Positions 27,107 to 35,401 of a stretch of 64,000 bases of DNA are shown here, one piece after another (the stretch's first letter is position 1; each line of letters opens with the position of its first letter). Position numbers and translations under genes: made by a program. The notes beneath the pieces were generated by a model. It did no database searches. It was not told where the DNA came from and saw only the letters and a program-made list of their open reading frames with translations. Source of the DNA: Anaeromyxobacteraceae bacterium (GTDB lineage: Bacteria > Myxococcota > Myxococcia > Myxococcales > Anaeromyxobacteraceae); assembly GCA_047602405.1 (NCBI GenBank), contig JASGHJ010000001.1, positions 960,001 to 1,024,000 of the forward strand, given 5' to 3'.

Positions 27107-27339
27107 CGCGGAGTGACGCGGCGCGACGCGCCCGCCGGTGGCGACCCGTTCCGTACATCCGCGCACGTACCCGGCGCACGTGCTCGCCCTCCGGCGGATC
27201 GGTGACGTCCACGCGCCCGCGCCGGTCACCGCTCCTGTCGATCGTGCCGCCGGTACGGGTCGCCGGGGCCACGGGTTCGGCGTTCCTCGCGACCACGTGC
27301 CGCATCGGAGGATCGCGCCGGTTGGGCGAGTTTCGTCAG

Positions 27340-28680
27340 GTGAAGGACGCCCTCTCCCTCCCGTCGCTCGCCGTGCCCCTGCGCCGGGCGTTCCTCCGGG
27401 CCGCGCTCTGGCTCGTGCCCGGGGTCGCGCTGCAGGTGGCCGTCGCGCTCGTCACCGACCTCGCGAACGGCCCCTGGTCCCCGGTCCTCCTCGTCGGGCT
27501 CGCGCTCGTCGCCCTGCTCGGCGGCGCCGCGTGGAGGTACCGCGAGCGCGCCGAGCTGGCGGCCCCGTTCCTGATCGTGCTCGTCGCGTCGATCACGCTC
27601 GTCGGCACGGCCCGCTACGGGCCGCTCGCGGCGAGCGGTGCCTACCTCGTCGTCGCGAGCGTGCTCGCGCCCGCCCTGCTCCCGCGCCGGCTCGGGCTCG
27701 CGCTCGCCGCCGCGGCGGTGCTCGCCTTCGTCGCGCTCGGCGCGGCGATGACCGCCGGCCTCGTGCCCGTCCCGTCCCCTGCGCTCTCCGACCTGCGCAG
27801 CGGGCTCGTCTGGACCCGCGTGGTCGTGGCGCTGACCATCGCGGTCGTCTTCGTCGGGTTCGTGTTCCAGGTGGCCGAGCGCCACCTCCTCGAGGCGCTC
27901 GCCGGCGCCGCCGAGGACCGCGCCCGGGCCCTCGCCGCGGAGCGGGAGCGGGCGCAGTCGGAGGCCGCGCTCGCGATGGCGCAGCGGGTGGCGTCGATCG
28001 GCTTCCTCGCGGGAGGCTTCGCCCACGACGTGAAGAACGCGCTCGCGGTCGTGCAGGCCGGCGCGCAGGCGCTCCGCACGCACCCCGCGGAGGCGCAGGA
28101 GGTCGTCGGCGAGCTCGAGCTCGCGGCCTCGAGCTGCGCCGAGGCCGCGCAGCACCTGCTCGCGCTCGCCCGGGACCCCGAGGAGTCGGGCCGCTGCCGC
28201 CCGCGCGACGTGCTCGCCGGGCTCGCCCGCATGCTGAAGCCGGTGCTGCCCCAGGGCGTGGCGCTCGAGGTCGACGCGCCGGTGGACGCCGAGGTCCCGG
28301 TCGCCGAGGGCACCCTCACCCAGGCGCTCCTCAACGTCGTCCTGAACGCCCGCGACGCCATGCCGGACGGCGGCCGCCTGGCCCTGCGCGCGCGGCTCGA
28401 TCCCCGCGACGGCGTGGTGATCGAGGTGGAGGACTCCGGTCTCGGCATGGACCCCGACACGCTCGCGCGGGTCTTCGACCCGTTCTTCACGACCAAGCCC
28501 GCCGGCGCCGGCACCGGGCTCGGGCTCCCCATGGTGAAGCGCACCATCGAGCGCGCCGGTGGCACCGTGCGGCTCGCCTCGGTGCGCGCGAGGGGCACCA
28601 CCGTGCGGATCGCGCTGCCCGTCGCGGCCTCCCGCGGGAAGCACGCGCGGCGCAAGGAGCGGGGCCTGCCCCTCGCCTGA
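27340..28680 (+). CDS. Multi-TM sensor histidine kinase (orphan)
   Basis: Several TM helices, then LAGGFAHDVKNAL, LNVVLNARDAM, DSGLGM, FDPFFTTK, GTGLGL; GTG start at 27340 is inferred. Confidence 0.85.
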   Translation: MKDALSLPSLAVPLRRAFLRAALWLVPGVALQVAVALVTDLANGPWSPVLLVGLALVALLGGAAWRYRERAELAAPFLIVLVASITLVGTARYGPLAASGAYLVVASVLAPALLPRRLGLALAAAAVLAFVALGAAMTAGLVPVPSPALSDLRSGLVWTRVVVALTIAVVFVGFVFQVAERHLLEALAGAAEDRARALAAERERAQSEAALAMAQRVASIGFLAGGFAHDVKNALAVVQAGAQALRTHPAEAQEVVGELELAASSCAEAAQHLLALARDPEESGRCRPRDVLAGLARMLKPVLPQGVALEVDAPVDAEVPVAEGTLTQALLNVVLNARDAMPDGGRLALRARLDPRDGVVIEVEDSGLGMDPDTLARVFDPFFTTKPAGAGTGLGLPMVKRTIERAGGTVRLASVRARGTTVRIALPVAASRGKHARRKERGLPLA

Positions 28681-28709: not shown

Positions 28710-30926
28710 TTAGATCCGCACGCCCACCGCGAAGCCCGGGAAGAGCCGGACGTCGCGCTTCGCGCCCTCGTGCAGGCTCACCGACCCGAGGAACTTCACG
28801 TCCTCGTGCTGGCCGGCGTCGACGGTGAAGACGTTCACCGCCGGCGCCGCGAAGACGGCGAACCGCGGCGCGAGCTGCCAGGCGAAGCTCGCGCGCAGGG
28901 TCGACAGCTCACGCGTCCCGGTGTCGGTCGCGGGCCCGTACTGCACGCTGCCGGACAGGGCGTCGACGTCGAGCGACAGCCGGGGCAGGAGCTCGGTGTG
29001 CACGCCGACGCCGAAGCTCGGCAACCACCGTACCTCGCCCGCGTGCTTCCCCGCGTCGAGGCCGATCGCGAGGATGGTGTGGAACCAGCGGTTCCCGAGC
29101 TTCAGGGCGACGTTGCCGCCCGGGTTCGTCTCGGTCGCGTAGACCTCGAGGACCTGCCGGCCTTCCTTCACGATGTTGATGACGCCGATGGGGAGGTCGA
29201 CGTCGTCGGAGAAGTTGATGACGCCGATCTGCGCGCCGCTCACCTTCCCGCCCACGTTCACGACGCCCACCTGGAGGCCCGAGACGCCGCCGGTCACGAC
29301 GTTCACCGGGGAGACCTGGAGCCCCCGCAGCGCGCCCGCGTAGGCGACCGCGCCCGACACCTGCACGCCCTCGAGCCGCCCGGCCACGCTCGCGACGGCG
29401 CCCGCCACCTGGATCGCCTGGGCGTCGCCGCCGGCGATCCCGGCGACCGCGCCCGCGACCTGGATGGCCTCGCTCGTCCCGCTCGCCCAGGCGACCGCGC
29501 CCGAGACCTGCACGCCCTCGAGCGGGCCCGCGCCGGTGAACGCGCCGGCGACCTGGATCGCCTTCGTCGGCCCGCCCATCCAGACCGCCGCGCCGCCCAC
29601 CTGCACGCCGCCGCCCGCCGAGGCCGAGTGGCCGATCCCGCCGACCGCGATGCCGTCGAGGACGTCGGAGTGGCTCCAGAGGAGGCCGAGTGCGAGCTTG
29701 TTGCGCGCCGGACGCCCGGCGGCGTCGTTGACCGAGAGCGGCGGCACGAGCGCGACGTCGAAGAGCACGTCCCGCGACGGCGGGCGGCCCGTCGTGTCGA
29801 CGACCGAGACCGTCGGCGCGATGGAGGCCGCGGGCTCGCCGCCGGCCGCGGCGACGTCGCCCCGCACCGCGTTCACCTCGGCCACCGCCGCGGCGAGCTT
29901 CTCCTGCACGACCACCACCCGCCCGTTGCCCGGCACCGCGAACGTGCCCGCGTCCACGCGGTCGCCGCGGGCGATGCGCACCTGGTAGTCGCCCGGCGGG
30001 AGCGCGAGCTCCACCGGGGTACCCTTCACCTTGCGGAGCTCCGCCATCAGGACGCCGCCCGCGTCGCGGACGAACACCCGCCCCTCGAGCACCTCCGGGA
30101 GCACGAGCGCCGCGCCCGCGAGGCGCAGGTCGGTGAGCACGACGTCGCCGGAGCCGACGAGCCCGATGTCGTAGGTCGCGTGCTGGGGGCCGGCCCGGGT
30201 GCCCTCGGTCTGCGCGAGGGTCTCGTGGAACGCGAACTGGTAGGCCTCGTTGAGGGTGACCCGCCCGTCGCCGTTCGCGTCGGCGGCGCCGCGCATGCCG
30301 GTGAGGAGCGCGTGCGTGAAGAACGAGGCCTTGATCTTGTCGGACTCCTGCGAGGCCTCGTCGGCGGCGCTGGAGGTCAGGAACGCGTGGCCGCGCAGCC
30401 GCTGCGAGGCGTCGAGCAGGAACGGCGGCCGGTGCACGCCGCCCTTCTCTCGGGTGAACGCCCCGGAAGCGCAGGAGTCGAGGATCGCGACGCGGACCTC
30501 GGCGGGCGTCCGGTCGAGCTCGCCGCGGAGGTCCTTGTAGGGCAGCCGCTCGTTGCCGAGGAGCAGCCCCTCCGCGTCGGAGTGGCCCGAGTAGTAGAGG
30601 AAGAGCTCGCTCCGCCCGCCGCGGGCCTTCACCTCGGCGGCGGTCCGCGACACCGTCGCGATCGCGGCGCGCAGCGCGGCGGGGCTCGGGTCCTCGAGGA
30701 GCGCCACGTCGGCCGGCGCCACGCCGCCGAGGGCGCGCAGCACCTGCGAGACCTCGCGCGCGTCGGTCGTCGAGTAGCGGAGCGCGGTGCGGCCGGGGCC
30801 GCCCTCGCGGGCGCCGGCGACGATGGCGAAGCGGCGCGTCGGCTCCGCGGCCCGGGCGGCGGTGGGGGCGGCGAGGGCGGCGGCCGCGGTGAGGAGGCAC
30901 AGCGCCAGGACGGCCGGGGTCTTCAT
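28710..30926 (-). CDS. Exported caspase-fold (peptidase C14) protease with C-terminal Gly-rich repeats and a beta-rich tail
   Basis: From MKTPAVLALC: signal peptide; LFLYYSGHS and ILDSCASG (His/Cys dyad); SFFTHALLTGMRGAADANGDGRVTLNEAY; ATGA overlap with the upstream gene. Confidence 0.88.
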   Translation of the reverse strand: MKTPAVLALCLLTAAAALAAPTAARAAEPTRRFAIVAGAREGGPGRTALRYSTTDAREVSQVLRALGGVAPADVALLEDPSPAALRAAIATVSRTAAEVKARGGRSELFLYYSGHSDAEGLLLGNERLPYKDLRGELDRTPAEVRVAILDSCASGAFTREKGGVHRPPFLLDASQRLRGHAFLTSSAADEASQESDKIKASFFTHALLTGMRGAADANGDGRVTLNEAYQFAFHETLAQTEGTRAGPQHATYDIGLVGSGDVVLTDLRLAGAALVLPEVLEGRVFVRDAGGVLMAELRKVKGTPVELALPPGDYQVRIARGDRVDAGTFAVPGNGRVVVVQEKLAAAVAEVNAVRGDVAAAGGEPAASIAPTVSVVDTTGRPPSRDVLFDVALVPPLSVNDAAGRPARNKLALGLLWSHSDVLDGIAVGGIGHSASAGGGVQVGGAAVWMGGPTKAIQVAGAFTGAGPLEGVQVSGAVAWASGTSEAIQVAGAVAGIAGGDAQAIQVAGAVASVAGRLEGVQVSGAVAYAGALRGLQVSPVNVVTGGVSGLQVGVVNVGGKVSGAQIGVINFSDDVDLPIGVINIVKEGRQVLEVYATETNPGGNVALKLGNRWFHTILAIGLDAGKHAGEVRWLPSFGVGVHTELLPRLSLDVDALSGSVQYGPATDTGTRELSTLRASFAWQLAPRFAVFAAPAVNVFTVDAGQHEDVKFLGSVSLHEGAKRDVRLFPGFAVGVRI

Positions 30927-31699
30927 GGGGTCACCTTGGGGAGGAGCGCGCTCGACTGCGCGAGCCCCTTCGGAAGCGGGAGGAGGGCCTGCCCGGCGTC
31001 GCCGCGCGCCGCGACGTCGCGGGCCGCGCCGAGCACGGGGGCGAGGCCGAACGGCTCCTTGCCGGTCACGAGCACGAAGCGCTCGAAGCCGGGGGCGTCG
31101 TCGAGGCGGAAGGACTCGGGCAGGAGCACCTCGCGCCCCGCGTCGAGCGGCGCGGCGGTCTCGCCGTCGAGCGGCCAGTGGCGGGTCACGTTGCCGGCGC
31201 CGTCGATCGACACGATGGCGCCGTAGGCCGCGCCGGCGGAGACGTAGCCGACCTGGATGAGGTCGCCGCCGCGGGCGCGCGCACCGGGGCCGAGCACCTC
31301 GGCGCCGTCGGCGGTGCGGCGGTGGAGCACCAGCGTCGCGGAGAGGCCCTTCGTCCGCTCGGCGTCGACGCCCACGTCGCCGCCCGGGTGCGGCGCGCGC
31401 AGCGCGAGCGGGACCGCCACGAGCACCGCGGCGGCGGCCGCGAGCCACGGCGCGAACGCGAGGAGCGGCCGGCGCGGCGCGGGGCGGAGGTCGGAGCGGC
31501 GGTGGACCTCGGCGGCGACGACGCGGGCGGGGTGGCGGAGCAGGAGCTCGGCGTCGGAGGCGCGCAGGGCGCGGATCCGCTCCTCGCCGCCAGGCTCGGC
31601 GGCGAGCCGGGCGCGCAGCGCCGCGGCCTCGGTGGGCGGGAGGTCGTCCGCGGCGAGGCGCTCGAGCAGGTAGTCGGGGATCCGGTTCTCAGGCTGCAT
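30923..31699 (-). CDS. Putative single-TM anti-sigma factor with a DUF4384-like periplasmic domain
   Basis: N-terminal helical domain, TM helix, ERTKG, then GDLIQVGY...IVSIDGAGNVTRHWP...LPESFRLDDAPGFERFVLV; overlaps the sigma factor stop. Confidence 0.75.
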   Translation of the reverse strand: MQPENRIPDYLLERLAADDLPPTEAAALRARLAAEPGGEERIRALRASDAELLLRHPARVVAAEVHRRSDLRPAPRRPLLAFAPWLAAAAAVLVAVPLALRAPHPGGDVGVDAERTKGLSATLVLHRRTADGAEVLGPGARARGGDLIQVGYVSAGAAYGAIVSIDGAGNVTRHWPLDGETAAPLDAGREVLLPESFRLDDAPGFERFVLVTGKEPFGLAPVLGAARDVAARGDAGQALLPLPKGLAQSSALLPKVTP

Positions 31700-32171
31700 C
31701 GGCGGCCTCCAGCTTCTCCATGCGCTCCTTCAGCGTGCGGAGGCGCTTCCTCACCCCGCTGACCGACAGCCCGACCTCGGCCGCGACCTCCTCGTGCGTG
31801 AGGCCGTCCACGAGGTGCAGCACCGCGATGACCGGCGTGGAGGCGAGCTCGTCGCGGAACGCGCGCCCGAGCTGGAAGCGTGCGAGCCACGCGGCCTCGG
31901 GCGACTCGGCGCGGGCGATCGCGAGGACCTGCGCGTCGACGGGGTCGGTGGCGCGGCGCTTCTGGTTGCGCAGCCGGTTCAGGCAGAGGTGGGTGGCGAT
32001 CCTGAGGAGCAGGGACGCCGGCGCGCGGTCGTCGAGGTCGTGCTGGTGCTCGAGCAGTCTGACGAAGGTGTCGTGCATGACGTCCAGGGCCGCCTCCGGG
32101 TCGCGCAGGAGCGACCGGCATCGCCGGAGGACCATCGGTCCGAACTGCTGGTAGTGGGCTTCGACGTCCAA
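31689..32171 (-). CDS. ECF sigma factor
   Basis: Region 2 (YQQFGPMVLRRCRSLLRDPEAALDVMHDTF...IATHLCLNRLR) and region 4 HTH (DGLTHEEVAAEVGLSVSGVRKRL). Confidence 0.9.
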   Translation of the reverse strand: MDVEAHYQQFGPMVLRRCRSLLRDPEAALDVMHDTFVRLLEHQHDLDDRAPASLLLRIATHLCLNRLRNQKRRATDPVDAQVLAIARAESPEAAWLARFQLGRAFRDELASTPVIAVLHLVDGLTHEEVAAEVGLSVSGVRKRLRTLKERMEKLEAADAA

Positions 32172-32312
32172 GGGGCGTCACTCGCTCCTGTCGGTTAGAG
32201 GAACCCCGTACCCCGGTCGAACTGTCACCCGCCCTGCATCGCCTGGCACGGACGGCCGGAAAGCTACCTGTTTGCGCAGGCTTCTTGAAGAAACCCTCCA
32301 CGGGAATCCGCC

Positions 32313-34457
32313 ATGAACCTCGCCGCCGCCACCGCCGCGCTCCTGCTCGCCGCACCCCCGTCGCCGCCTCCCGCCCCCGTGGCGCGCGTCGAGGCCGCCT
32401 CCGAGGTCCACCACGGCGTCGGCGTGCCCGACCCCTACCGCTGGCTCGAGAAGGCCGCCGACCCCGAGGTGAAGGCCTGGACCCGAGGCCAGGACGCCCA
32501 CACGCGCGCGGTGCTCGCCGCGTTCCCGCAGTCGAAGGGCATGTACGCGCGGGTGAAGGAGATCAGGTCGGCGGCGTACCCGGCCTGGTGGGGCCTCCAC
32601 GAGGAGGGGGGCACGCTCTTCGCGATCGTCTTCCGGCCGCCCGAGCAGCAGCCGCGCCTCGCCGTGCTGGCCTCGCTCGACGACCCGCGCGAGCGGACGA
32701 TCGTCGACCCGAACGCGATCGACCGGTCGGGCAAGACGGCCATCGACTTCTTCGAGCCGTCCCACGACGGCACCCGGGTCGCCGTGTCGCTGTCGGTGAA
32801 CGGGACCGAGGACGGGACCGTGCACGTGTACGACGTCGCGACCGGGAAGGCGCTGCCGGACGTCCTGCCCCGCGTGAACGGCGGCACCGCCGGCGGCAGC
32901 GTCGCGTGGGCGGCGGACGGCTCGGGCTTCTGGTACACGCGCTACCCCGCGCCGGGTGAGCGGCCCGAGGCGGACCTCCCGTTCTTCCAGCAGGTCGCGT
33001 TCCACGCGCTCGGCACCCCGGTCGCGCAGGACGAGGTGGAGCTCGGCGCGGAGTTCACCGACCCCAGGATCGCGCAGGTGGTCCTCCAGGCCTCCCCGGA
33101 CGGCAAGCTCGCGACCGCGCGGGTCGCGCGCGGCGACGGCGGTGACTTCGAGTGGTTCGTCCGGCGCGGCGGGGCGTGGACGCGCCTCGCGCGCTTCGAG
33201 GACCGGCTCGTGGACGGCCGGTTCGGGCCCGACGGCGCGCTCTGGCTCGTGTCGCGCAAGGACGCCCCGCGGGGCAAGGTGCTCCGCCTCCCGCCCGGCG
33301 CACCCGCGGGGGCCGCGCCCGCGCTCGTCGTGCCCGAGGGCGACGGCTCCATCGAGGAGCTCGCCGTGACGTCCTCCCGGCTCTACCTCGTCGAGCAGGT
33401 GGGCGGGCCGACCCGCCTGCGCGCGTTCGGCCTCGACGGCAAGCTCGTGGGCGTGCTCCCCACGCCGCCGGTCTCCTCCGTCGGCGGGCTCGAGCGCGCC
33501 GGCGCGGGGGTCGCGTTCCGGGTGAGCACCTTCCTCACGCCGGCCGCGTGGTGGCGGGCGGACGACGCGAGCGGCCAGTCCGCGCGCACCGCCCTCGTCG
33601 GCCAGTCCTCGGTCTCCTTCGACGACTGCGAGGTCGTGCGCGACGAGGCCGTCTCCGCGGACGGCACGAGGGTGCCGGTCACGCTCCTCATGAAGAAGGG
33701 CACGCGGCCCGACGGCCAGAACCCGCTCATGCTGTACGGCTACGGCGGCTTCAACATCTCCGAGACGCCCTCCTTCTCGGCCGTCCGCCGCGCGTGGCTC
33801 GAGCAGGGCGGCATCTGGGCCCTCGCGAACATCCGCGGGGGCGCGGAGTTCGGCGAGGCGTGGCACCGCGCGGGCGCGCTCGACAGGAAGCAGAACGTCT
33901 TCGAGGACTTCGCCGCGGCCGCGCGGCTCGTCGTCGCGAGGAGGTGGACGCGGCCGGAGCGGCTCGTGCTGCACGGCGGCTCGAACGGCGGCCTCCTCAT
34001 GGGGGCGATGATCACGCAGTTCCCCTCGCTCGCCCGGGCGGTCGTGGCCGAGGTCGGCATCTTCGACTCGCTCCGCGTGGAGCTCACGCCGAACGGCACG
34101 CACAACGTGACCGAGTACGGCACGGTGCAGGACCCCGCGCAGTTCCACGCGCTGCGGGCCTACTCGCCCTACCACCGGGTGATGGACGGGGTGCCCTACC
34201 CCTCGGTGCTGCTCACCGCGGGCGAGAGCGATCCGCGCGTCGACGCCTACCACGCGAAGAAGTTCGCGGCGCGGCTGCAGGCGGCGACGTCCTCCGGGCG
34301 GCCGGTGCTCCTCCGGATCTCCGGCGGCGGCCACGGCATCGGCGCGGGCCTCGACGAGGGCATCGCGCGCGTCGCCGACGTCTACGCCTTCGCGATGCAC
34401 GAGCTCGGGATGACGTTCAGGCCGCCGCCGCGGCCGGCGGTGCCGGCGAGGAAGTAG
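32313..34457 (+). CDS. Prolyl oligopeptidase (S9A), exported
   Basis: DPYRWLE, YGYGGF, GGSNGG nucleophile, DPRV Asp, GGHG His. Confidence 0.94.
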   Translation: MNLAAATAALLLAAPPSPPPAPVARVEAASEVHHGVGVPDPYRWLEKAADPEVKAWTRGQDAHTRAVLAAFPQSKGMYARVKEIRSAAYPAWWGLHEEGGTLFAIVFRPPEQQPRLAVLASLDDPRERTIVDPNAIDRSGKTAIDFFEPSHDGTRVAVSLSVNGTEDGTVHVYDVATGKALPDVLPRVNGGTAGGSVAWAADGSGFWYTRYPAPGERPEADLPFFQQVAFHALGTPVAQDEVELGAEFTDPRIAQVVLQASPDGKLATARVARGDGGDFEWFVRRGGAWTRLARFEDRLVDGRFGPDGALWLVSRKDAPRGKVLRLPPGAPAGAAPALVVPEGDGSIEELAVTSSRLYLVEQVGGPTRLRAFGLDGKLVGVLPTPPVSSVGGLERAGAGVAFRVSTFLTPAAWWRADDASGQSARTALVGQSSVSFDDCEVVRDEAVSADGTRVPVTLLMKKGTRPDGQNPLMLYGYGGFNISETPSFSAVRRAWLEQGGIWALANIRGGAEFGEAWHRAGALDRKQNVFEDFAAAARLVVARRWTRPERLVLHGGSNGGLLMGAMITQFPSLARAVVAEVGIFDSLRVELTPNGTHNVTEYGTVQDPAQFHALRAYSPYHRVMDGVPYPSVLLTAGESDPRVDAYHAKKFAARLQAATSSGRPVLLRISGGGHGIGAGLDEGIARVADVYAFAMHELGMTFRPPPRPAVPARK

Positions 34458-34474: not shown

Positions 34475-35401
34475 CTACATCGCCACCGGCACCGGCACGA
34501 ACGTGCCGACCAGCACCGCGACCGACGCGGCAGCGATCGCCAGGCGCCACCCGCCGAGCGAGGGCTCCTCCACGATCGGCGGCGGGTGCCCGAGGCCGAT
34601 GACCTTCCGCGTGATGAGCCACCACACGAGCCAGCTCCACGAGAGGAACAGCCCGGCGACGAACAGCGCCCACGACGCGACCTCGCCCACGCGGCGCGCG
34701 CGCCGCTCGCCGAGGAGCGCGAACGCGACGTGGCCGCCGTCGAGCTGGCCGACCGGGAGGAGGTTGAGGGTGGTGACGAGGAGCCCCACCCAGGCCGCGA
34801 GCGCGACGGGGTGGATGATCACCTCGCTCCCGTCCGGCACGCGCCCGAGCACGAGCCACTCCGCGCCGCGCATGACGAGGCTGTCGCCGAAGGAGACGAG
34901 CCCGTCGCCCGGCCCGAACACCGGCTCGCCGTGCAGGAACCGCCAGGCCATCCCGAGCGGCGACGGCGAGAGCGCGTGCGCCGTCCCGAGCTCGGCGAGC
35001 GCGTGGACCTCCGAGTGCGCGAGCCCCCACGCGAGGATCGGCAGCGCCACGAGGAAGCCCGCGATGGGGCCCGACGCGCCGATGTCGAGCACGGCGCGGC
35101 GGGTCGGGATGGGGGCCTTCAGCCGGATCACCGCGCCGAGGGTGCCGACCCCGAAGGGCGCCGGGATGAAGTACGGCCAGGTCACGTCCACCCCGTGCAG
35201 CCGGGCGGTCACGAAGTGGCCCATCTCGTGGACGAGCAGGATGGAGAGCAGCGCCCCGGAGAAGCGCAGCCCCTCCCGGACCGGATCGGAGCCCTCCGGG
35301 GTGAGGGCGGTGCCGACGAGGAAGGTGGTCCCGACCGTCGCGAGGAACAGCCCGAGCTGGACCCAGGGGAAGGTGCGGACCGGCCTCGTGACGGCGTCCA
35401 T
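34475..35401 (-). CDS. Site-2 intramembrane metalloprotease (M50)
   Basis: HEMGH and NLLPVGQLDGGH motifs; multiple TM helices. Confidence 0.93.
   Translation of the reverse strand: MDAVTRPVRTFPWVQLGLFLATVGTTFLVGTALTPEGSDPVREGLRFSGALLSILLVHEMGHFVTARLHGVDVTWPYFIPAPFGVGTLGAVIRLKAPIPTRRAVLDIGASGPIAGFLVALPILAWGLAHSEVHALAELGTAHALSPSPLGMAWRFLHGEPVFGPGDGLVSFGDSLVMRGAEWLVLGRVPDGSEVIIHPVALAAWVGLLVTTLNLLPVGQLDGGHVAFALLGERRARRVGEVASWALFVAGLFLSWSWLVWWLITRKVIGLGHPPPIVEEPSLGGWRLAIAAASVAVLVGTFVPVPVAM

Follow-up and report, generated by a model that had tools for sequence, protein, structure and literature searches.

One question raised by the locus analysed here is what a caspase-fold protease does in one operon with a sigma factor of the extracytoplasmic function (ECF) type and a membrane protein. 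The locus occupies positions 28710-32171, on the minus strand, of a 64,000-nucleotide stretch of contig JASGHJ010000001.1 from an Anaeromyxobacteraceae bacterium (hereafter the window). It consists of three co-oriented, overlapping genes, correctly recognised in an earlier note on this DNA: the ECF sigma gene (31689-32171; 160 aa, TTG start), the gene of a predicted single-pass anti-sigma (30923-31699; 258 aa) and the gene of the caspase-fold protease (28710-30926; 738 aa), with overlaps of 11 nt between the first two and 4 nt between the last two. Comparison of homologous loci, together with structure models, makes it rather probable that the protease releases itself by self-cleavage and goes on to cut the anti-sigma at site 1, which would activate the sigma.

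Conservation of the cassette and its basic-Gly sites

The cassette is real, conserved and widespread in myxobacteria. The genomic sample comprised 86 loci (the window, five paralogues from its own genome and 80 of 150 listed places, picked for spread over genomes from the best-scoring part of 445 matches), and the held-out set comprised the best 80 of 531 metagenomic loci. The survey of gene neighbourhoods proposed in the earlier note found the ordered sigma/anti-sigma/caspase triad in 73 of the 86 genomic loci (3 lacked the sigma gene, 1 was cut by a contig end and 9 were lone caspases) and full triads in 47 of the 49 metagenomic loci with enough upstream DNA. With a threshold of E ≤ 1e-20 the caspase domain was detected in 141 of the 201 phylum genomes, a count that includes the unpublished genome G196, on which no other claim rests; 66 of the 92 family genomes had it at E ≤ 1e-15. 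A single-query scan of the genome contigs gave two loci only. Six triads are present in the window's own genome, full-length homologues are on record for Myxococcus xanthus, and a 93%-identical anti-sigma is present in an Anaeromyxobacter sp. record. The divergence of the triad members was correlated (Spearman 0.73-0.82 over 73 triads, among which kin are not independent). The identity of the first gene as an ECF sigma is borne out by a Pfam Sigma70_r2 match (E 9e-14), by TIGR02937 (52.6 bits against a cut-off of 42.9) and by the short ECF layout with regions 2 and 4 only.

Two subtypes were distinguished. The long type, to which the window copy belongs, has a beta-helix in the protease and an anti-sigma without the zinc ligands H-x3-C-x2-C (absent from 44/44 loci). 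The short type has no repeats, mostly keeps the zinc ligands (24/33) and usually has a lipoprotein gene close behind (one family, 22 loci), which overlaps the caspase gene in the comparison of C-terminal variants. The five paralogous triads of the own genome (L003-L007, on contig C2 of G000) are of the short type with zinc-type anti-sigmas; lipoprotein genes lie behind four of them, two encoding repeat proteins that look RCC1-like by eye, and one triad is flanked by a lipoprotein gene on each side. The nine lone caspases (L150:275-8284, L163, L038, L045 and others) are long-type and all belong to one family.

The caspase domain (residues 28-270; 30117-30845) contains a Peptidase_C14 match (PF00656, residues 32-215) above the Pfam cut-off, with an E value of 1.7e-8. 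The catalytic dyad is intact, as described earlier, with H115 in YYSGHS and C152 in LDSCASG, and both residues are kept in 86/86 genomic loci. Equally invariant (86/86) are D55, D150 and E194, which form a predicted acidic S1 pocket: D55 and D150 align with conserved metacaspase Asp residues, and the three correspond by position (for E194 by position only) to Asp365, Asp462 and Glu500 of MALT1, its Arg-specificity residues, which bind the P1 Arg (PMC4357240). Hence an acidic substrate pocket and a preference for basic P1 residues are expected, and the corresponding proposal of the earlier note gains comparative backing.

Three sites that fit such a preference were found. The RTKG reported just after the transmembrane helix of the anti-sigma is present as R115-T-K117-G118 (31346-31357), at the end of the disordered linker formed by residues 101-116, and is the predicted site-1 site. 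The protease VRG noticed earlier is also present, as V354-R355-G356 (29859-29867), and is where the soluble protease is predicted to be released from its membrane tether; the best likeness to the anti-sigma site is, however, another one that had been overlooked, R159-E-K161-G162 (30441-30452), which lies in a loop nine residues past the catalytic Cys and is a predicted site of self-cleavage or self-inhibition. The loop K-G was conserved in 86/86 genomic loci, with R at P3 in 82, and R-x-K-G was found in 77/80 held-out metagenomic loci. At the junction, R (57 loci) or K (29 loci) stands in a linker that otherwise varies, and the next residue is G in 85 of the 86. Conservation of the anti-sigma motif had been set as a check: K-G is present in 77/77 loci, within about 40 residues of the transmembrane helix and 6-29 residues from it, with R at P3 in 65, and makes up the most conserved columns of the protein, whereas shuffling of the periplasmic part gave K-G in a mean of 8.1 and a maximum of 16 of the 77. 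It recurs in 64/66 held-out loci, the two exceptions being R-G and K-D. In the models, runs with a predicted local distance difference test (pLDDT) below 50 occur only at residues 161-174 and 353-378 of the protease and at residues 1-3 and 101-116 of the anti-sigma, so that all three basic-Gly sites border predicted disordered segments.

The anti-sigma K-G decays where the caspase gene is absent. This was observed in a natural control of 30 anti-sigma homologues without an adjacent caspase and with at least 1.4 kb of downstream DNA, in which in-register calls were made by eye; the contig-end loci L313, L323 and L339 (all K-G) and the loci L327 and L335-L337, which have an adjacent caspase, were left out. 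K-G was found in 9 homologues, R-G in 5 and neither in 15, one being ambiguous; the DUF4384 domain persisted, and some of the losses arose through deletion in the linker. Eight of the nine homologues that keep K-G come from genomes that encode the caspase elsewhere. Four genomes were checked further and gave no match to the caspase subfamily of the cassette, and two of them hold a different C14 protein of about 900 residues. The junction R-G is absent from three caspase-less repeat/barrel proteins. In a divergent subfamily (L307, L335 and L336) the caspase has FVFAGH and the loop N-P-R-K-[AP]-G-G and the anti-sigma has R-G, which is suggestive of one case of joint change; L336 shows an apparent frameshift near the start of the caspase gene. 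Separately, in L148:250-2125 a sigma/anti-sigma pair is followed by a barrel-only gene (194 aa), the caspase and the repeats being missing; its anti-sigma retains R-x-K-G and its genome has five other caspase matches.

Several observations weigh against cleavage at these sites. Nine of the 30 caspase-less homologues retain K-G, one of them in a genome without any caspase match (G238, 84% complete), and the 15 losses represent about six lineages instead of 15 events, so that the control is not a statistical test. The conservation of K-G would be equally expected of a docking or inhibitory motif that is not cut, and MALT1 is not cut in the loop equivalent to the R-x-K-G loop (PMC4357240). The identity of P1 does not strictly covary, since the long type pairs a junction R with an anti-sigma K. 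Finally, a near-identical site is present in all six paralogous systems of the own genome, and the specificity of pairing therefore needs an additional mechanism.

Predicted architecture of the protease and the anti-sigma

The protease was modelled with AlphaFold2 from 120 sequences (mean pLDDT 87.9; predicted template modelling score 0.59, with the relative placement of the domains uncertain), and the model was compared with 48,161 chains. Behind a putative signal peptide, recognised by eye and with a crude hydropathy rule that was positive for 68/86 homologues, come the caspase domain, an all-beta Ig-like sandwich defined from the secondary structure of the model (residues 272-347; 29886-30113), the linker with the junction site, a predicted beta-helix of LA_2272-type repeats (residues 385-586; 29169-29774) and a predicted 8-stranded outer-membrane barrel of the OmpA/OprF type (residues 590-738; 28713-29159). 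The caspase domain resembled AtMC4 (Z 22.5, root-mean-square deviation (rmsd) 2.6, 208 residues aligned), as well as caspases and MALT1 (Z 20.4), with 17-19% identity to AtMC4 and MALT1. Paracaspases are marked by a six-stranded sheet, activation as dimers and an Ig domain behind the caspase domain, metacaspases by an extended sheet and dependence on calcium. Z scores were similar for the paracaspase and metacaspase groups, and an all-beta domain follows the caspase domain in the model. The best matches of the beta-helix were an ice-binding beta-helix (Z 17.6) and adhesins, and those of the barrel were OprF-N (Z 14.7, rmsd 3.1, 124 aligned) and OmpA (Z 14.2). Single-sequence PDB searches gave no match for either the protease or the anti-sigma.

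The barrel has eight strands, within residues 590-737, and not the 12 of classical autotransporters. The N-terminus of barrels of the OmpA/OprF type faces the periplasm, and the caspase and beta-helix are therefore predicted to be periplasmic. Thus the protease is predicted to be tethered to the outer membrane through its barrel, with the catalytic domain on the periplasmic side. This replaces the earlier picture of a soluble exported enzyme, in which the C-terminal barrel had been overlooked, and leaves the claim that the protease senses a surface cue unsupported, because the repeat region precedes the barrel and is itself predicted to be periplasmic.

The anti-sigma model (94 sequences, pLDDT 88.4) comprises a four-helix cytoplasmic domain (residues 9-71; 31487-31675), a transmembrane helix (residues 83-100; 31400-31453) and a DUF4384-like beta-sandwich, predicted periplasmic (residues 122-256; 30932-31336), in which residues 144-215 match DUF4384 with 22.8 bits, under the Pfam cut-off of 27 bits. 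The single-pass topology and the DUF4384-like domain proposed before are thus retained, and so is the notion of a zinc-finger-like N-terminus with replaced ligands: the window copy has R31, E35 and G38 where 5/5 own-genome paralogues carry H-x3-C-x2-C. The helical N-terminal domain and the single transmembrane helix are those of class I (ASD/ZAS) anti-sigmas; the zinc ligands of that class are lacking. A profile of the six paralogues found DdvA, ChrR (twice), RsiW and one membrane protein, which we take to be RslA, as its top five PDB matches, and among the paralogue anti-sigmas two scored above the zf-HC2 cut-off and one above that of DUF4384. The middle gene is accordingly predicted, in agreement with the earlier note, to encode the anti-sigma of the cassette sigma. 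Two results speak against this assignment: the profile matches are weak (E 0.019-0.21), and a profile of the window's own clade matched no anti-sigma. A Foldseek search with the model gave no match at E ≤ 0.001. Some homologues bear the database name "ActD-like protein" (P0145, an Atlas cluster), a label that may point to the act operon of M. xanthus. Spirochaetota clusters of the Atlas are leads only: they show a likeness to the anti-sigma at TM 0.58 and to the caspase at a score of 0.85, in the latter case with PEGA and Por_Secre_tail domains.

Promoter-like motif and predicted regulon

A promoter-like motif, GTGACA-N14-CGGGGTT, lies 30 nt above the sigma start (32202-32228, minus strand) and is predicted to be autoregulatory. 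The family consensus is GTGACA-N14-CGGTGTT, the window copy having CGGGGTT as its -10 element. The motif was found upstream of the sigma gene in 32/39 long-type and 2/33 short-type loci, in none of 200 shuffles, and again in 28/48 held-out loci. Genome-wide, 30 genomes with the long type gave 129 matches against 24 for reversed-pattern controls, and 32 genomes without it gave 19 against 29. The sigma is predicted to recognise GTGACA-N14-CGG(T/G)GTT. Four points count against the prediction: the 39 long-type loci are those on which the pattern had been defined by eye; the sigma's own promoter accounts for about one match per long-type genome; strict matches in the own genome number just three; and the closest exbB-exbD-tonB-receptor operon there (C1:1120736) has a weaker variant, GTGACG-N14-GGGGGTT, 92 nt upstream, with a sub-threshold score of 13.1.

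The genes behind the motif were examined in 40 regions beyond the sampled sigma promoters, with the strict consensus favoured, which gave 42 sites. The first gene was exbB at nine sites (9 genomes, 4 families), five of which continue with exbD, tonB and a TonB-dependent receptor gene; one was seen to end in a lone caspase. Other first genes coded for DUF2807 proteins at 3 sites, caspase-less repeat/barrel proteins at another 3, beta-lactamase-family hydrolases and esterases at 2 each, and an S41 peptidase, a TonB-dependent receptor and another sigma at 1 each; as second genes, DUF2807 proteins occurred twice and an S41 peptidase once. No gene was called at three sites, and at a few others the gene that follows is apparently unrelated, such as one for a sigma-54 activator or a desaturase. 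The regulon is thus predicted to consist of TonB-uptake and exported-hydrolase genes together with the sigma operon, and these predicted targets hint that the signal may be a scavenged macromolecule or a product of the envelope. The idea that R-x-K-G marks the TonB-dependent receptors of the regulon as substrates was rejected, the motif being apparently inside a barrel strand in 4/5.

Outside the window, the own genome has an exbB-exbD-tonB-TonB-dependent receptor operon (G000 C1:1120617-1125173), a candidate target of the sigma. The top-scoring site of that genome, GTGAGA-N14-CGGTGTT at C2:507104 (+), departs from the -35 consensus; the genes behind it, which run divergently from a moaA-like gene, encode an outer-membrane protein, a multiheme cytochrome and a 4Fe-4S protein. 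At least one lone long-type caspase closes a motif-led exbB-exbD-tonB-receptor-lipoprotein operon. In L041, L050 and L065 the anti-sigma and caspase genes lack a sigma gene, yet the promoter motif is upstream, and one and the same conserved small gene comes after them in all three loci.

Proposed mechanism, known systems and rival explanations

In the mechanism that we propose, a ligand acting on the beta-helix or the barrel would activate the protease, perhaps by dimerisation as in MALT1; in the short subtype the ligand would act on the partner lipoprotein. A cut at K161 may mature the enzyme, and a cut at R355 would free a fragment of about 330 residues able to reach the inner membrane; this would account for the access of an outer-membrane-anchored enzyme to a site that lies 6-29 residues from the inner one. 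The cut at K117-G118 would then strip the DUF4384 cap from the anti-sigma, a cap that probably also sets pairing specificity among the six paralogues. An RseP-type protease and cytoplasmic proteases would complete the release, as in canonical regulated intramembrane proteolysis, and the freed sigma would transcribe its own operon and the predicted TonB-uptake and exported-enzyme genes. That the whole forms an outer-membrane caspase receptor, which is ligand-activated and self-releasing, crosses the periplasm, cuts the anti-sigma and induces a TonB-uptake/hydrolase regulon, is a tentative proposal, to which we give somewhat less than an even chance.

Several known systems resemble parts of this scheme. 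FecIRA-type signalling combines an outer-membrane protein, an inner-membrane anti-sigma and an ECF sigma, and its output includes TonB-dependent uptake; there a TonB-dependent transducer serves as the outer-membrane part and proteolysis is left to housekeeping enzymes, whereas in the cassette the barrel is 8-stranded, no match to the FecR family is present and the outer-membrane component would itself be the protease. The DdvS/DdvA pair of M. xanthus shares with the cassette an ECF sigma, a membrane anti-sigma with a zinc-type N-terminal domain and a periplasmic caspase-fold unit proposed as site-1 protease, to be followed by RseP. It differs in that the unit is a TPR-CHAT within the anti-sigma, with an incomplete site, cleavage itself being a hypothesis, and in its CBASS/CRISPR regulon (PMC11506125); the cassette has a separate C14 enzyme on a predicted outer-membrane barrel, and the periplasmic part of its anti-sigma is a 135-residue DUF4384-like sandwich. 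In the Csx29/Csx30/RpoE system of type III-E CRISPR a caspase-fold protease likewise cuts a sigma-binding protein in a linker, and some Csx30 C-terminal domains are DUF4384 (bioRxiv 2022.08.17.504292). Csx29 is, however, cytoplasmic, of the CHAT family, triggered by target RNA through Cas7-11 and without a barrel, whereas the cassette protease belongs to PF00656 and is flanked by histidine kinase and prolyl oligopeptidase genes. The SAVED-CHAT/PCaspase/PCi/PCc-sigma system of Haliangium ochraceum also has a C14 protease near a sigma and a small partner that is cut, but its PCaspase depends for activation on a second protease and on cyclic oligoadenylate, has a broad range of substrates, the sigma included, and causes abortive infection (bioRxiv 2023.06.23.546230). 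MALT1 and AtMC4 share the fold and the acidic pocket, MALT1 having an all-beta domain behind the caspase domain (PMC4357240) and AtMC4 cleaving itself at a linker Lys (bioRxiv 2020.03.09.983940); both are cytoplasmic eukaryotic enzymes without a sigma partner.

Release of a sigma by a caspase fold has thus been shown in part for Csx29/Csx30 (bioRxiv 2022.08.17.504292) and proposed for DdvA (PMC11506125). A linkage of sigma-70 and metacaspases, with co-transcribed genes, was described by Asplund-Samuelsson et al. 2012 (PMC3501461) in M. xanthus DK1622, Anaeromyxobacter, Haliangium, Sorangium, Ralstonia and Fibrobacter. Very probably these are the same operons; the anti-sigma, barrel, cleavage motif, promoter and mechanism do not appear in the available part of that account. 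Other caspase systems near ECF genes (PMC8195603) and CHAT proteins near ECF54 (PMC8999054) are on record, and the available part of the ECF classification supplement (PMC7826278) has no entry "caspase" and names DUF4384 under ECF25 only. A literature search, with most subscription papers outside its scope, found no description of a barrel-anchored caspase with a DUF4384 anti-sigma or of its mechanism. The cassette is not a member of the DdvA, Csx30 or FecIRA families; it is probably a variant of signalling by anti-sigma proteolysis.

Could the K-G motifs be bound and not productively cut, the anti-sigma motif serving as a docking arm or inhibitor in the caspase pocket? The signal would then pass by contact or release, as with TonB-dependent transducers and their anti-sigmas, and another protease would make the site-1 cut. 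Lys225 of AtMC4 occupies the active site and is not cut before calcium is supplied (bioRxiv 2020.03.09.983940), PCi both inhibits PCaspase and is cut by it (bioRxiv 2023.06.23.546230), and loss of the motif without the caspase fits binding as well as cutting. A dyad intact in 86/86 loci and a nearly invariant Gly at P1' of all three sites point to catalysis instead, and a site so close to the inner membrane is likely beyond the reach of an outer-membrane-attached short-type protease, so that we hold this explanation to be unlikely. It is also quite unlikely that the caspase cuts the anti-sigma constitutively, as maturation, or as feedback, with the fragments staying together and the DUF4384 domain or the lipoprotein acting as sensor. 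Other anti-sigmas are described as cleaving themselves constitutively and retaining the products (PMC11506125), and some caspases look like outputs, because lone caspases end motif-led exbB-exbD-tonB-receptor operons; yet the C-terminal region of the protease varies (a beta-helix, or none with an overlapping lipoprotein gene) and the anti-sigma fold is constant, which suggests that the input enters through the protease.

A module for defence or cell death, in which the caspase would respond to damage or phage with broad cleavage like PCaspase, or its passenger region would be exposed on the cell surface, would be in line with the role in defence of myxobacterial caspase-fold proteins beside sigma factors (DdvA, PCaspase) and with the resemblance of the beta-helix to adhesin and autotransporter passengers. 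It is nonetheless very unlikely: the named genes behind the 42 promoter sites are mostly of uptake and envelope, a scan of 33 of the proteins, which included no defence library, showed no CRISPR or CBASS family, and the barrel has too few strands for an autotransporter. That the three genes merely travel together, the protease not acting on the anti-sigma, is highly improbable; 9/86 caspases do stand alone and sigma/anti-sigma pairs without a caspase exist, but the genes overlap, their divergence is correlated and the motif decays without the caspase.

Most discussion of bacterial caspase homologues concerns cell death and phage defence, and to our knowledge the site-1 step of most membrane anti-sigmas is not known. 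For that step this family brings forward a specific protease and three predicted cut sites, together with a promoter and target genes that are predicted as well. If cleavage of the anti-sigma by the self-released protease is true, caspase-fold enzymes join the site-1 proteases as a modular receptor-protease switch, and a bacterial caspase has a signalling role that governs nutrient-uptake and exported-enzyme genes. If the tentative reading as a ligand-activated outer-membrane caspase receptor holds too, the cassettes would form a new kind of trans-envelope relay, with up to a dozen variants per myxobacterial genome.

The window has a GC content of 74%, and the composition of the cassette is not distinct from its surroundings. 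The cassette is flanked by a divergent gene for an exported prolyl oligopeptidase (32313-34457, +), without homologue in the other loci, and on the other side by a convergent gene for a membrane histidine kinase (about 27138-28680, +). A Peptidase M50 gene, of the site-2 protease family, lies 2.3 kb upstream of the sigma gene (34475-35401, -). Synteny was checked in the 85 other loci (8.5-14 kb each); the M50, prolyl oligopeptidase and GntR genes were not counted as parts of the cassette, because they have no close homologue there. The own genome has four M50 matches, two of them within long frames.

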